DNA of 41,300 bases from a virus (taxonomy: Duplodnaviria; Heunggongvirae; Uroviricota; Caudoviricetes). The position numbers were made by a program, and so were the translations under genes. The stretch lies in the IMG/VR virus record IMGVR_UViG_2778261153_000009, positions 1 through 41,300 of that record. The stretch is one strand, 5' to 3'. This document shows, in pieces, positions 5,226 through 13,523 of this stretch; the stretch's first letter is position 1; the number at the start of each line of letters is the position of its first letter. A model generated the notes under the pieces. That model worked only from the letters and a program-made list of their open reading frames with translations. It searched no databases and was not told the DNA's origin.

Positions 5226-5390
5226 TTTGGGACCCTCGGTTTTTGGACCCTTCTTAGTGGGTCCCATTCAGGGTGCCATAACTCGTAGTTCTCAGCAATT
5301 CTCACTGGACGACAATAGACGTAAAAAAGCCCGCAGAGCTTGTGCTGTGTGGGCTTAGTAGACTTCATTGAACTTCAAACAACTAAAAAG

Positions 5391-5422
5391 TGGTGGAGCT
5401 GGCGGGAGTTGAACCCGTGTCC
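5391..5422 (-). repeat. att direct repeat: partial copy of tmRNA (ssrA) 3' end
   Basis: Minus strand reads GGACACGGGTTCAACTCCCGCCAGCTCCACCA, matching the ssrA acceptor/T-arm 3' end as I recall it; upstream lacks any tmRNA tag-coding region. Confidence 0.7.
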
Positions 5423-5849
5423 ATAGTTATGTAATTCATTGAATTTAAATAGCCAAATATTGTTGATTTTACAAGCGGCTCTTTTGCGGAACTTTTTCTG
5501 TCCTGTTACTGTCTTACTATTTATTTTAAAATAGTTTCATTTGGAATTAATGGTTTGTGGTTGCAGTTTCGGAGATAGATAGCATTTTTTGCTAAAAAAT
5601 ATTTTTATAAAAAAATGTGTGTAAAAATGATGTTATGCACAGATTTATGCACAGAGGCTTTGTGATAAACCAGATTGTTTTGGATAAGTTTGTTTTTTTG
5701 TGATTTGTCAACAATATTATTGACTCTTGTTACTAAAGTGAGTGTTTTCTAAGGTGGTCAGAAGTTGTCCCTTCATGTAATCTTATTAGCCATAAAGAAC
5801 AAAAAATAATTCAACATCATTACCAACTATTTGTAAGATAAGGTTTTTA

Positions 5850-6665
5850 ATGTTGCAGCCAGCAAAAAAAGCATCAGTTATTAGCGCGCGGCTAACTAAA
5901 TACCTCAAAGATGGAGTGAGGATTGATGACTTTAGCTTTAGAAGGATGTTACGTGAGATTGAAGCACTTAGAGATCCTGTCTCTGAGGACTATCTTTTAG
6001 CGTTGGTCTATGGTGCACATGGCCAAGTGAATGAGGCGATAGGCTTCTTTGAGCGTTCCTTGCAGGTATGCCATAATGAGGTTGTTGCAAAGAATTTTCT
6101 TGTTTTCTTGTCAGATTACGGTACGTTGAAGAAAAGCTTTGAAACAAGCATTAAGCTTGCTGAAAGCTTCATATCCCCGTTTATTTATCTTCAAGCTTAT
6201 GAAAACTCCCTCTTTATGGGGAAGATGGCGTTGGCGGAGAAGTATTTCCAGTCATACTCTAAATTGTTCGGAGATAAGGAGCCTGAAAAAATGGACAACA
6301 ATTTTGATGAAGTTGTTTCCCAGGTCGAATCCTTTAAGCAACGTGCCGATCTTTCTGGTTTAGAATATGAACTTATTTTCAATAATGTAGCCAATGTCAT
6401 GGATTCTCAGAAGGTTCATCTTTCGGGAATGCGTTTTTATAATATTTCGGAAGAGAAAGTGAATGCGATTGTATTCATGACAAAGTCTTCTGATGCTGAA
6501 CAAATCGCTGATATGAATATTGAGCTTGCTTTTTCAATGGCTGAGCACGATTGTTTAGTCGGTAAAGATTTTGCTGTTTGGTTTGAATGTAAAGACACAC
6601 ATATTGAGCAGAATGCTATCTCCGAATTAGGTCTGATTACCCGGAGGGTTGCACATGCCGGTTAA
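5850..6665 (+). CDS. Hypothetical protein (AT-rich cargo between att and int)
   Basis: 271-aa ORF, no family recognised; overlaps the next gene. Confidence 0.5.
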   Translation: MLQPAKKASVISARLTKYLKDGVRIDDFSFRRMLREIEALRDPVSEDYLLALVYGAHGQVNEAIGFFERSLQVCHNEVVAKNFLVFLSDYGTLKKSFETSIKLAESFISPFIYLQAYENSLFMGKMALAEKYFQSYSKLFGDKEPEKMDNNFDEVVSQVESFKQRADLSGLEYELIFNNVANVMDSQKVHLSGMRFYNISEEKVNAIVFMTKSSDAEQIADMNIELAFSMAEHDCLVGKDFAVWFECKDTHIEQNAISELGLITRRVAHAG

Positions 6666-8432: not shown

Positions 8433-9299
8433 TTAACGAATAGTGTCGTTACTTTGAAGTACAGCAAATGCCATTAATACTTCTAAAGTATATCTTCTAT
8501 AAAATTTAACAAAACCAACATAGAAAACATAGACGAAGAAAAAGCTAAGCATTATTGAAAGTAAACTATAAAGATAATCACTATGAGTACATAATCGATA
8601 AATAAAGGTTGGAACTGATACCCAAAATGAAATTATAAAGATTAAACATATGTTTCTGCAAAAACCATATAATGCAACATAGTTTTGAATTTTTGTTTGA
8701 TGTTGTTTTGAAAACTCATAAACATAATGATATGCCAATCTGAAGAGATCATCATCAAGTCCGTTTTTATCTTGTAATAATTGGCGATTTGTTATGAACT
8801 TTTTCTCATAACCTTCTTTGATCATTAACCATGTTGTATTAGCTAAATGAAATGGTAGAGATTGAGAATAACATAGTTTTTGTGTTATAAAATCCCATAG
8901 TATTATTGGGCATAATACGCATTTGATTATGCGATTCTTTATTTTTGTTTTTTTATCAGCGCTTCTCTCATCGCATGATGGGCTACAAATGCTTTCTGAG
9001 GTATCTATCAATTTTTTAAATAGATATTTGGAAGGATATCCTAATTCTTTATTCATGTATTTTTCGATAAAAAATGCTGACGTGATAGAAATAAAATGTC
9101 CAGCTATATAAGATATAATAACTATTGAAGCGTAGTTCAAAATGCCAAAGATTTGACTTTGACCTCTGAGCAATTCACTTAAGTCAATAACAATATCTAG
9201 ATCGAATGTCAAACCACAGAAATACATTAATAGGATAAAAAAACCACCTGGTATTAAATATCCAAGAAAGTCATAGAATGAGAATGGATTTTGATTCAT
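8433..9299 (-). CDS. Multi-pass membrane protein, hypothetical (AT-rich cargo)
   Basis: ATG at 9299 with SD GGAGA; multiple hydrophobic segments; AT-rich unlike flanking phage genes. Confidence 0.55.
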   Translation of the reverse strand: MNQNPFSFYDFLGYLIPGGFFILLMYFCGLTFDLDIVIDLSELLRGQSQIFGILNYASIVIISYIAGHFISITSAFFIEKYMNKELGYPSKYLFKKLIDTSESICSPSCDERSADKKTKIKNRIIKCVLCPIILWDFITQKLCYSQSLPFHLANTTWLMIKEGYEKKFITNRQLLQDKNGLDDDLFRLAYHYVYEFSKQHQTKIQNYVALYGFCRNICLIFIISFWVSVPTFIYRLCTHSDYLYSLLSIMLSFFFVYVFYVGFVKFYRRYTLEVLMAFAVLQSNDTIR

Positions 9300-9407
9300 T
9301 GTTGCTCTCCAATAATTTTTCAATTTGTAATATAACCTATATCTATATGTTAATAAATTACTTATATGTTCTTTTATGGCAGAGTTTGAATTCGTACGTG
9401 CTGATTT

Positions 9408-11313: not shown

Positions 11314-11781
11314 TTTGCTGCTCCTCATCATATCGACCCTGCAAGGTCGGTTAGTTTCTCCACAAAACAGAGAAGAACACCTGCGGTGACTGCCGCCCGG
11401 ATGGATTGGGTTATGAGCCCGTCGTCCGGTGATGCTCTTCTCTGTTTTGTAAAAAGGACGGTACCAGCCGGAAGCAAGGGTACAAGCTGGTACCGCCAGG
11501 ACTACACACAGCATAAAGTTGTGGTGCCGGGTGCCTCCCGGTGCCTGGCGAAGGTTGCACACCAGGCGGGTGGGTATCCACAGAAGGTCGACTGTCAGCC
11601 TCAACCTTAACCCGCGTGCGCTGAGCCGCATTCACCACAACGCTAAGGATTCTCTCTGGTTGAAAATACTTAGCTGTTATGTGCCTGCTTTTAGCCACAT
11701 CAGGCGAGGTGGACCTGGTTATTCCCCAACAACAAGGATTCGGTTAATCTGGTTATCCCCAACAACGCAAAAGGAAAAGAA
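11314..11781. promoter_or_regulatory. GC-rich structured non-coding region between divergent genes (leader/regulatory or ncRNA)
   Basis: 15-bp perfect inverted repeat 11362..11376 / 11436..11450; 9-bp inverted repeat 11460..11468 / 11486..11494; two direct repeats CTGGTTATYCCCAACAAC at 11715..11733 and 11749..11766. Confidence 0.35.
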
Positions 11782-12216
11782 ATGTCCGGTAATATCTATA
11801 CGCTGTACAAATCCCACTGTGAAAATGTTGGAAAGTATCGGGGCATTGAAATCAGTGGGGTAGTGTCATCAGTCGAAATAAGCAAAGTTGAATCAAGGGC
11901 AACATTACTTACTCTTTTGGACCTTGTCTTACATGAGCACCGGAAGAAATTCGGCACTCCCTATAATCAGTTGAATGGGAAAAAGGCTCTGGTTCACCTT
12001 ATTCTGATGAAGCATCACTGGATGCCAAAACAGATTAATGAGATGAAATTTGATGAACTTCTTCTTTCAATTCAGGATGAACTCACACTTGATAAAATAA
12101 GCGTAACCGCCCAGAAATTTTTAGATTATCGAGACTGGAGATCACAAATTCATCACTTTGATGATTTTGACGAAAATGAATGGGATCCTAATTTGTCTGC
12201 ACAATATCTAAAGTAA
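11782..12216 (+). CDS. Hypothetical protein, oriented against the early-left operon
   Basis: 144-aa ORF, ATG preceded by AAAAGGAAAAG; no family recognised. Confidence 0.5.
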   Translation: MSGNIYTLYKSHCENVGKYRGIEISGVVSSVEISKVESRATLLTLLDLVLHEHRKKFGTPYNQLNGKKALVHLILMKHHWMPKQINEMKFDELLLSIQDELTLDKISVTAQKFLDYRDWRSQIHHFDDFDENEWDPNLSAQYLK

Positions 12217-12394
12217 CATCCTGTGATAAAACCGTGATTTCCTGATCCAGTTTTTTTAAGGAGTCTATTGTTTCCTGTCGATAAGACAGCACTTCACGAA
12301 GCTGGTTTATAGCTGCCAGCTTCTTTGTCATCCACTCATAAATTTCCTCATCTGTGTAGCCAGGCGCGACGATTTTGGGTTCTGTTTTGTGCAT
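12188..12394 (-). CDS. Small hypothetical protein
   Basis: ATG at 12394 with SD GAGGAG 7 nt upstream. Confidence 0.4.
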   Translation of the reverse strand: MHKTEPKIVAPGYTDEEIYEWMTKKLAAINQLREVLSYRQETIDSLKKLDQEITVLSQDVTLDIVQTN

Positions 12395-12453
12395 TTCACA
12401 TCTCCTCAAGTTATCAGTTACTTGTTGATGGGGACCAGATTGTTAAAGAGCTA

Positions 12454-12477
12454 AGCGTCCTGTAGGGCGCTTTTTTG
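12454..12477 (+). terminator. Putative intrinsic terminator
   Basis: AGCGTCC-TGTA-GGGCGCT stem followed by TTTTTT. Confidence 0.4.
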
Positions 12478-12689
12478 TTGCTAACGAATCATCCTGGACT
12501 TCATATGCCCCAGGCGGCTACTTCGTGGGCGTCCTGCCTGTTCGTTTTTGACATTTACTGACTGCTTACGACACATGCACCGTGTTGCAACCAGATTTTG
12601 TTGTAATCCTGTAGTTGGTCTGGAACAAAAGATAAAATTAAATTGCGATATATGCAAGTGATTTTTGCGAAATATGCAAATTTATAGGT

Positions 12690-12713
12690 AATAAAAAGCC
12701 ACCTTTCGGTGGC
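12690..12713 (-). terminator. Putative intrinsic terminator downstream of repressor gene
   Basis: GCCACC-GAAA-GGTGGC hairpin followed by T-run on minus strand. Confidence 0.45.
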
Positions 12714-12733
12714 CGATGGATGGGATATTGAGG

Positions 12734-13426
12734 TTAATTATGTCTCTTAAGGGTTTGCGACTGACTGATTAAGACCTTTCCAAAGACCATGAATCGGTGT
12801 TCGTTTTCGCTAGTAATTCCCCATTCACGGTAAATCTGGTTATCAGAAATCACCAGCAGTTTGTCAGGAATCATTTGAAGTCTTTTAACGTATATTTTGT
12901 CATCAAAACCAAAGACATATATACCATCACCATCAAACTGATTGATGCTGACATCAACGAAGATGAGATCTCCTGGCTCAATGGTTGGACACATACTGTC
13001 CCCACGAACGTTGATAACTTTGATGTGATTGGCTGGTCGTCCGCCGAACATTGATACAGCATTATCAGTTCTGTATTCGATGGCATGAATCACATCAATG
13101 ACATCACCGCCCTGGATAAGGCCATTTCCCGCACTGGCACTGATATCCAGCATTTCAATACGGAACACATCCTTCACCTGCGCAACATCCTCATTATTAC
13201 TGTTTTTATATACAGTATTACTTTTGTGGGCAGAGGTAAAGAGATCAGCAATATCAACACCTAAGCTCTTGGCAATATTACTCAGTGTTTGTTCGGTAAA
13301 TTGTTTTTGCTTACCCGTTTCTAAGCGCGAGATGTTCGCCGCATCTACTCCTATTGCTTCAGCGAGATCGGCGATTTTCATGTTCTTCGCTTGGCGAAGT
13401 TGTCTGACTCGGTTTCCTATGTTCAT
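12734..13426 (-). CDS. CI-like phage repressor (HTH + S24 LexA-like peptidase domain)
   Basis: N-terminal HTH MNIGNRVRQLRQAKNMKIADLAEAIGVDAANISRLE; C-terminal autocleavage-type domain; divergent from cro-like gene. Confidence 0.85.
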   Translation of the reverse strand: MNIGNRVRQLRQAKNMKIADLAEAIGVDAANISRLETGKQKQFTEQTLSNIAKSLGVDIADLFTSAHKSNTVYKNSNNEDVAQVKDVFRIEMLDISASAGNGLIQGGDVIDVIHAIEYRTDNAVSMFGGRPANHIKVINVRGDSMCPTIEPGDLIFVDVSINQFDGDGIYVFGFDDKIYVKRLQMIPDKLLVISDNQIYREWGITSENEHRFMVFGKVLISQSQTLKRHN

Positions 13427-13523
13427 GCGTTTATTACATTTCTTTATTGCGTGATAAGCAAATCAACTTGCGCAAAATAATTGCGTGAAATAACATGCAT
13501 AACGCGCAATATCTGGAGGACAT
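13427..13523. promoter_or_regulatory. Immunity operator/promoter region (OR-like)
   Basis: Four copies of TTGCG(T/C)(G/A)A at 13447, 13468 (palindrome TTGCGCAA), 13481 and ~13502 between divergent cI-like and cro-like genes. Confidence 0.5.

Follow-up and report, generated by a model that had tools for sequence, protein, structure and literature searches.

The convergent genes considered here, which encode proteins of 144 and 68 amino acids (aa) at 11782-12394 of an Escherichia coli prophage sequence (IMG/VR record IMGVR_UViG_2778261153_000009, positions 1 to 41,300; this entire stretch of 41,300 nucleotides (nt) is the window referred to below), have their closest described counterparts in the sieB/esc locus, in prophage defence systems with self-immunity and in an early operon of the K-12 prophage Qin. 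SieB (PF14163) resides in the membrane and Esc is made in frame from within sieB, and the locus, with its sas antisense RNA, was reportedly described in phages P22 and lambda by Ranade and Poteete in 1993. The pair resembles sieB/esc in having an antiparallel gene, presumably expressed in the lysogen, inside the early-left (PL) operon, a candidate escape function, and antisense transcription that would come from the lytic promoter. It differs in that the 144-aa protein, a member of the ECs1072 family, is predicted to be soluble and is unrelated to SieB, and in that the putative escape factor, a member of the YdfC family, is a separate convergent gene. The DNA carrying the two genes also recalls a moron, which in the definition of Hendrix and Juhala is said to be an extra transcription unit with its own promoter and terminator and an atypical composition, present or absent between relatives.

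BstA/aba is a prophage defence with self-immunity in which the aba element is DNA, not protein (PMC8585504), HepS is a further conceptual precedent for prophage defence with self-immunity (PMC13043305), and TerI is accompanied by the small neutralising proteins anti-TerI1/2 (bioRxiv 10.1101/2025.02.27.640495). Judged from gene arrangement, the present locus may share the logic, and only the logic, of BstA/aba and TerI, namely a lysogen gene near the repressor that is neutralised at the prophage's own induction. The candidate antagonist is encoded on PL, PR or P2-early transcripts, and neither system has sequence or fold similarity to ECs1072 or YdfC. YdfC itself is a promoter-proximal small protein of the DicA-repressed ydfABC-dicF-dicB operon (PMC5069750). 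Like ydfC in Qin, the small gene of the window is the promoter-proximal small gene of a repressor-controlled early operon; it differs in belonging to a variable cassette and in overlapping an opposing gene by its last nine codons. The 144-aa protein shares its size and single-domain architecture with NF033230 and PHROG 5286, which are function-blank in databases, and the papers found by literature search mention neither the convergent YdfC-like pairing of this family nor its anti-operon polarity. As defined by sequence comparison, the conserved ECs1072/YdfC-like pair is a new result.

A conserved convergent pair

The two open reading frames (ORFs) are arranged tail to tail:

11782-12216, + strand: ECs1072-family gene, 144 aa, assigned from the ORF listing, NF033230 and phrog_5286
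12191-12394, - strand: YdfC-family gene, 68 aa, first ORF on the PL (early-left) strand
12188-12216: tail-to-tail ORF overlap of 29 nt, both stop codons counted

A convergent YdfC-like ORF abuts the 3' end of the ECs1072-family gene in 109 of the 110 evaluable loci, with partners detected by family profiles and one further locus, cut by a contig end, left out. Near-identical copies from E. coli make up the majority of these loci, and the evidential weight therefore lies on approximately 15 distinct locus types from at least nine genera, found in E. coli, Escherichia albertii, Shigella, Yersinia, Pectobacterium, Proteus, Morganella, Pantoea, Serratia, Salmonella phage ST64B and Klebsiella. Polarity is the same in all of the types, the small gene running with the phage operon and the ECs1072 gene against it. 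In E. coli, E. albertii, Yersinia, Pectobacterium, Proteus and Morganella, the pair comes first behind PL, with the repressor on one side and the early-left genes on the other. It is located in the PR operon, between cII and the replication genes, in the O157 Sakai prophage Sp4 (the name-giving ECs1072 locus), between the Q antiterminator and holin genes in a Serratia prophage, ST64B and Klebsiella phages, and after cox in the early operon of P2-like Pantoea prophages. For the window, this arrangement bears out much of an earlier account drawn from its letters and ORFs (the sequence-only reading), which had the 144-aa gene transcribed against the early-left operon from a repeat-containing leader, a 68-aa ORF overlapping its 3' end convergently, and the immunity region alongside. 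The gene at 11782-12216 (+) does oppose the PL-strand genes (-), its leader holds a tandem duplication (at 11715 and 11749), the two ORFs share the 29 nt given above, and operator repeats and cI lie next to them.

The partners share an N-terminal motif (EP-[YFRK]-[ILF]-[YFV]-x-[GPA]-[DGS]..., then L-x-x-W-[LM]) followed by an amphipathic helix. Their conserved core of approximately 50-58 aa always stops exactly where the ECs1072 gene ends, beyond which the ORF enters the opposing gene for 29-227 nt (317 nt in Sakai Sp4) until a stop codon is met. In the window, the listed ORF extends over 12188-12409 (-), and an ATG at 12394, preceded by the Shine-Dalgarno sequence GAGGAG, gives the 68-aa product (stop codon 12188-12190). 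This protein is 41% identical to K-12 Qin YdfC over 66 of its 68 aa (BLASTP, E 9e-18), with which it shares the N-terminal motif M-x-K-x-EP-x-I-x-x-P-x-Y-T-D-x-E-[IL]-Y-E-W-M and the amphipathic helix after it; in a DNA search, the first third of the gene (5' 66 nt) was approximately 80% identical to ydfC. Its match to phrog_1744 is 119.9 bits, and a profile of non-Escherichia partners ranked the ORF first among the window's 721 six-frame segments (E 6.4e-4, against 0.57 for the runner-up). Pfam and NCBIfam hold no curated YdfC model that matches the protein, phrog_1744 being its only family match, and the Prokaryotic Genome Annotation Pipeline (PGAP) assigns the name YdfC by rules other than such model matches. 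The non-overlapping core of the small gene is under purifying selection, with ratios of nonsynonymous to synonymous substitution rates (dN/dS) of 0.05-0.16 in relatives where dS is measurable, and proportions of synonymous differences of 0.46-0.97 vs nonsynonymous proportions of 0.11-0.34. It is barely credible, then, that the two are accidental neighbours in a recombination hot spot with a non-functional small ORF. The variable C-terminal part, which extends into the opposing gene as far as the next stop codon, fits such a reading, but the 109/110 pairing, the selection on the core, the YdfC homology and the strong Shine-Dalgarno sequence contradict it. On this sequence evidence, both ORFs are more than chance.

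The 68-aa protein is acidic (isoelectric point 4.8) and has no arginine-rich motif, and a role as an N-like antiterminator was rejected on these grounds despite the adjoining boxA. Partners vary elsewhere: in one Proteus prophage (locus L015), two tandem YdfC-like genes (5849-6070 and 5233-5805, -) precede the ECs1072-like gene, and the partner ORF of Proteus and Morganella has an N-terminal extension of approximately 60 aa. The GenBank records of ST64B (L110, 2845-3279, +) and Klebsiella phage KPP5665-2 (L111, 2818-3291, +) leave the ECs1072-family gene unannotated, while the opposing partner is annotated as sb50 in the former and GP45 in the latter. A literature search on gene sb50 returned only prefix matches to the strain names SB501 and SB531.

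The 144-aa ORF starts with ATG, and its product belongs, at full length, to NF033230 ('ECs1072 family phage-associated protein'), scoring 157.8 bits against a cut-off of 70 with residues 4-144 aligned to model positions 2-142 of 142; its phrog_5286 match is 302 bits. An exhaustive profile search places the family in 76 clusters at 50% identity, all of single-domain proteins of approximately 145-155 aa, with named members from Escherichia, Yersinia, Pectobacterium, Proteus, Pantoea and Morganella. The allele of the window is present in 422 of 5426 complete E. coli genomes (approximately 8%), and RefSeq/PGAP annotates both genes on E. coli chromosomes with 100% identity. An AlphaFold2 model (17 sequences) consists of helices throughout (predicted local distance difference test 85.6, predicted template modelling score 0.83) and predicts a soluble helical bundle; the protein is hydrophilic (grand average of hydropathy -0.47). 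Residues G66, A69 and W134 are invariant in the family and R54 is nearly so.

Scans of Pfam, NCBIfam and PADLOC gave no functional family for either protein, PADLOC-DB 2.0 gave zero defence families for either at E up to 0.1, and a Pfam scan of 48 ECs1072-family members gave no match. A search of PDB sequences with the ECs1072 profile returned 0 matches at E up to 10, and neither this search nor the Pfam scan linked the 144-aa protein to a helix-turn-helix (HTH) or other nucleic-acid-binding family. Foldseek against BFVD with the 144-aa model yielded nothing at E up to 0.001, and scans of viral contigs with the single proteins returned mostly identical copies or nothing. The homology and structure searches proposed by the sequence-only reading have thus found families (ECs1072/phrog_5286 and YdfC/phrog_1744) and no structural relative of the 144-aa model; its view that neither product is recognisable fails at the level of family and holds for function, both families being function-blank.

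Several particular identities were rejected. For a HEPN protein, the conserved R54 and H72 lie 18 residues apart and do not form the Rx4-6H motif, and for SieB (PF14163), the protein has no Pfam match, is hydrophilic, and is modelled as soluble rather than membrane-spanning. Exclusion of the RexAB type is at odds with a gene on the opposite strand to cI, with the cI terminator and OL/PL in between and no family match. The likeness to Rex or exclusion functions that had been suggested from position finds no counterpart in sequence, neither protein resembling Rex, SieB or a defence model of PADLOC. A type II toxin-antitoxin system is likewise not indicated, given that the genes are convergent and that Pfam, NCBIfam and PADLOC show no toxin-antitoxin domain.

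A variable slot in the early-left leader

The window is a lambdoid E. coli prophage of the SfV/SfII/SfIV/CPS-53 type (SfV/SfIV-like). Many E. coli chromosomes carry 11650-12750 at 100% identity, and Shigella phage SfIV and several E. coli phages match the left 82% of this segment at 98-99.8%. Homology to SfII, SfV and mEp460 ends at approximately 11712 and restarts at 12485, which delimits a cassette at 11713-12484. Around 1900 E. coli genomes have the flanks of this slot, 403 of them with the present filling, and five other sampled fillings (L112-L116) each hold one rightward gene, of 164-173 aa; in its behaviour, the slot is a hot spot for accessory genes that oppose the operon. The cassette has a G+C content of 0.37-0.41 vs 0.45-0.56 in the flanking early-left DNA. 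Judged by its presence or absence at a defined slot, its own terminator and its atypical composition, 11713-12484 is a mobile two-gene accessory cassette of the moron type in the early-left leader. It resembles a moron in being present or absent among homologous phages, in low G+C content, in having its own terminator and in its operon-independent orientation; it differs in being a two-gene unit whose small gene depends on the promoter of the host operon, and the promoter of the 144-aa gene is only putative. Among the alternative fillings are a 171-aa protein with a coiled coil and a zinc ribbon (CxxC...CxxC) and a 164-aa protein with two predicted transmembrane helices.

These properties bear on the possibility that the 144-aa protein has an ordinary lytic-cycle function, expressed by read-through or from a late promoter, with no regulatory meaning in its antiparallel orientation. 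A protein that is predicted to be soluble, and whose modelled fold found no relative, would suit such a function, but orientation against the operon in every one of the approximately 15 locus types and four operon contexts, absence of the cassette from the viable close relatives SfII and SfV, and the moron-like composition and own terminator make it improbable.

The surroundings of the pair are, from left to right:

left of the STnc100-like RNA, - strand: yfdR, yfdQ (DUF2303) and yfdP
11448-11671, - strand: STnc100-like structured RNA (Rfam RF02076, 42.4 bits, E 7e-7, under the gathering score of 47)
11708-11781, + strand: leader and putative promoter region of the 144-aa gene, with the tandem duplication and the counterpart of an upstream element of relatives
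12422-12441, - strand: weak inverted copy of the leader repeat, 20 nt, 15/20 (75%) complementary, upstream of the small gene
12440-12452, - strand: boxA AGCTCTTTAACAA in the PL leader, just upstream of the small gene and after the hairpin
12453-12480, + strand: intrinsic rightward terminator, hairpin at 12453-12472 followed by TTTTTTGTTG
12485-12551: 67-nt PL-leader element, shared by many SfV/ST64B-like phages and forming the right (backbone) edge of the cassette
12643-12679: OL operator repeats at PL, TTGCGATATATGCAA at 12643 and TTGCGAAATATGCAA at 12665
12697-12714: cI terminator
12734-13426, - strand: cI (HTH and S24 peptidase)
beyond cI, + strand: cro and a cII-like gene

Rightward, the order is therefore 144-aa gene, 68-aa gene, hairpin terminator, 67-nt leader element, OL/PL, cI terminator and cI. 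A 15-bp operator-like sequence, TTGCGAtATATGCAA, has three copies, two at OL/PL and one in the cI-cro intergenic OR (13447-13461). The rightward terminator has an 8-bp GC-rich stem and a 4-nt loop before its TTTTTTGTTG tract (centroid -11.5 kcal/mol), and because of it a rightward transcript of the 144-aa gene would be antisense to the whole small gene and stop before OL/PL. No promoter of the small gene's own is recognisable within the window.

The leader of the 144-aa gene is CA-rich, with two GGA motifs, and contains a tandem 34-nt duplication, CTGGTTAT(T)CCCCAACAAC occurring twice, with CTGGTTATTCCCCAACAAC at 11715 and CTGGTTATCCCCAACAAC at 11749, 34 nt apart. It is unusually unstructured, its fold being less stable than those of all 200 shuffles (z +2.0). 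In Yersinia, Pectobacterium, Proteus, Morganella and partly Serratia, an element of approximately 65 nt containing TGnTATCTT lies upstream of the ECs1072-family genes and, in the first four genera, is better conserved than the coding sequence; the leader in the window is a diverged, duplicated homologue of this element. The inverted copy of the leader repeat at 12422-12441 may be due to chance. The boxA differs by one mismatch from the rrn/lambdoid consensus TGCTCTTTAACAA, and by calculation the window would hold approximately 0.05 matches of this quality; the early-left operon beside this near-consensus site shows no evident N-like protein.

Such signals are relevant to the proposal that the pair is a lysis-lysogeny regulatory module, in which the ECs1072 unit would serve mainly as a roadblock or convergent promoter and/or encode a regulator, so as to damp leaky transcription, early or late, in the lysogen, the small protein being its antagonist or unrelated. 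The unit always opposes the lytic operon near its promoter-proximal end, between promoter and first terminator, a consensus boxA and conserved leader elements adjoin it, and the upstream element is better kept than the coding sequence in Yersinia, Proteus and Morganella. However, the protein is kept as a folded 145-155-aa domain with invariant residues and no HTH or nucleic-acid-binding match, and related phages without the cassette have the same immunity region, which places the cassette outside the core switch. A mainly regulatory module appears quite unlikely.

Candidate roles of the pair

The constant backwards placement of the ECs1072 gene suggests a lysogen-expressed function with its own lytic-cycle off-switch. 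The simplest reading of the orientation constraint would be a separate promoter for one gene and reliance on the lytic promoter of the phage for the other. We tentatively favour, at less than even probability, a lysogen-expressed accessory or exclusion protein (the 144-aa product) together with an antagonist encoded on the lytic transcript (the YdfC-like product). The sequence-only reading had noted that genes with such an orientation beside cI are often expressed in the lysogen. For the 144-aa gene, this agrees with its orientation, slot, terminator, AT-rich composition and a SieB neighbour in Yersinia, and the idea of a lysogen moron appears reasonable for it. The 68-aa ORF does not fit, since it heads the genes of the PL strand downstream of OL/PL and belongs to YdfC, a family of normal promoter-proximal genes in repressor-controlled early operons such as Qin dicBF.

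In the favoured scheme, cI would shut PL in the lysogen and keep the small gene silent, while the ECs1072 gene would be transcribed rightward from its own leader, antisense across the small gene, to the terminator at 12453-12480. Its product would be active in the lysogen, most likely in superinfection exclusion or abortive infection, or else in another function of benefit to the lysogen. Upon induction, PL would fire and yield the YdfC-like protein as its first product, convergent transcription and RNA duplex formation would damp the ECs1072 gene, and the small acidic helical protein would neutralise pre-existing ECs1072 protein, conferring self-immunity on the prophage. Solo YdfC genes, such as that of K-12 Qin, would then be orphan antidotes.

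Support for a lysogen-expressed protein with a lytic antagonist comes from the pairing, the polarity, selection on the small gene, the behaviour of the cassette, the rightward terminator and the position of PL/OL upstream. Two further hints come from relatives. In one Yersinia locus (L009), a SieB (PF14163) exclusion gene (5827-6321, +) separates the pair from cI and shares its strand with the ECs1072-like gene, and in a microarray table from uninduced cultures, Sakai ECs1072 is listed with a 2.1-fold change between growth phases. Other observations weigh against the scheme. Upstream of the 144-aa gene, the + strand shows no canonical sigma-70 promoter. One locus (L004) holds the only true solo ECs1072 homologue. 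In ST64B, where the partner is sb50, the pair seems to be flanked by a good promoter-like site directly behind Q and by a terminator ahead of the holin gene, and the partner may be made constitutively, as part of a PR'-tR' leader, rather than only in the lytic cycle. Finally, YdfC may have an independent function, since YdfC-like genes are far commoner than ECs1072 genes (2897 vs 422 E. coli genomes).

The same asymmetry bears on a scheme with the roles reversed, which appears unlikely, and in which the YdfC-like protein would be a harmful early protein of the kil type and ECs1072 a lysogen safety lock acting through antisense mRNA and a neutralising protein. The ECs1072 gene almost never occurs without a YdfC-like gene (109/110), whereas YdfC stands alone in Qin, where no ECs1072 gene is found at its 3' end; such dependence is the pattern expected if YdfC were the target and ECs1072 an accessory regulator. 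The ECs1072 transcript would moreover span the entire small gene before terminating, and in Qin, YdfC belongs to an operon of toxic early genes, with DicB, DicF and YdfD as neighbours (PMC5069750). Against this, the papers found by literature search contain no report of YdfC toxicity, moving a toxic early gene and its antidote into late or P2-type operons has no obvious benefit, and most prophages that bear YdfC are without ECs1072.

A more specific form of the favoured reading, with a lysogen-expressed effector and a lytic antagonist, is that ECs1072/YdfC constitutes an undescribed prophage exclusion or abortive-infection system, with YdfC-like self-immunity wired to lytic promoters and an effector silenced by convergent transcription; on the genomic data this is rather doubtful. 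If true, it would represent a new defence system with protein-based self-immunity, and the YdfC that stands alone in K-12 Qin and many other prophages would have the role of an orphaned anti-defence gene. The failure of functional screens based on K-12 to recover the system would be explained as well. A practical warning would follow, in that K-12 hosts carry a potential antidote. The cassette is common, with relatives in Shigella serotype-converting phages, Sakai Sp4, ST64B and prophages of seven further genera (Klebsiella, Yersinia, Pectobacterium, Proteus, Morganella, Serratia and Pantoea). Its polarity-locked, obligate pair gives the ECs1072 family, and also YdfC, a y-ome gene of K-12, their first functional hypothesis that can be tested. 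A design principle is also suggested, in which one gene is plugged into a lytic promoter and the other opposes it, an arrangement that could switch an accessory function off at induction.

Boundary elements and neighbouring genes

On the right, the cassette is bounded by the 67-nt element, which is 85-97% identical in the otherwise dissimilar ST64B, phiNP, Yersinia YeP1-3, Pantoea AH07 and Klebsiella Kp4866-6; these match the region of the window only in this stretch. The element has no Rfam match, and a weak terminator-like hairpin on its + strand is no more stable than those of shuffled sequences; it may be a nut/put-like or a terminator element. On the left, the backbone boundary of the slot is the STnc100-like RNA, immediately downstream of the cassette in the PL direction, which ends in a terminator hairpin at approximately 11450-11500 (-25.6 kcal/mol, z -4.8). 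A bona fide STnc100 RNA (108 bits; L111, 2528-2723, -) lies between the ECs1072-like gene and the holin gene of Klebsiella phage KPP5665-2. Because this is the equivalent place, RNAs of the STnc100/PasD type look, from their positions, like promoter-proximal, terminator-ended leaders of early-left and late operons. RefSeq has a 'frameshifted hypothetical protein' pseudogene over the STnc100-like RNA (window 11672-11990 region; L001, 3679-3989), which is probably a spurious ORF call on structured RNA.

Further to the left, between the integrase gene and yfdR, a 296-aa multi-pass membrane ORF (8433-9323, -) is annotated in RefSeq only as hypothetical. It has a weak PADLOC match (E 1.4e-5) to Csx27/tm_4, membrane proteins associated with type VI-B CRISPR systems.

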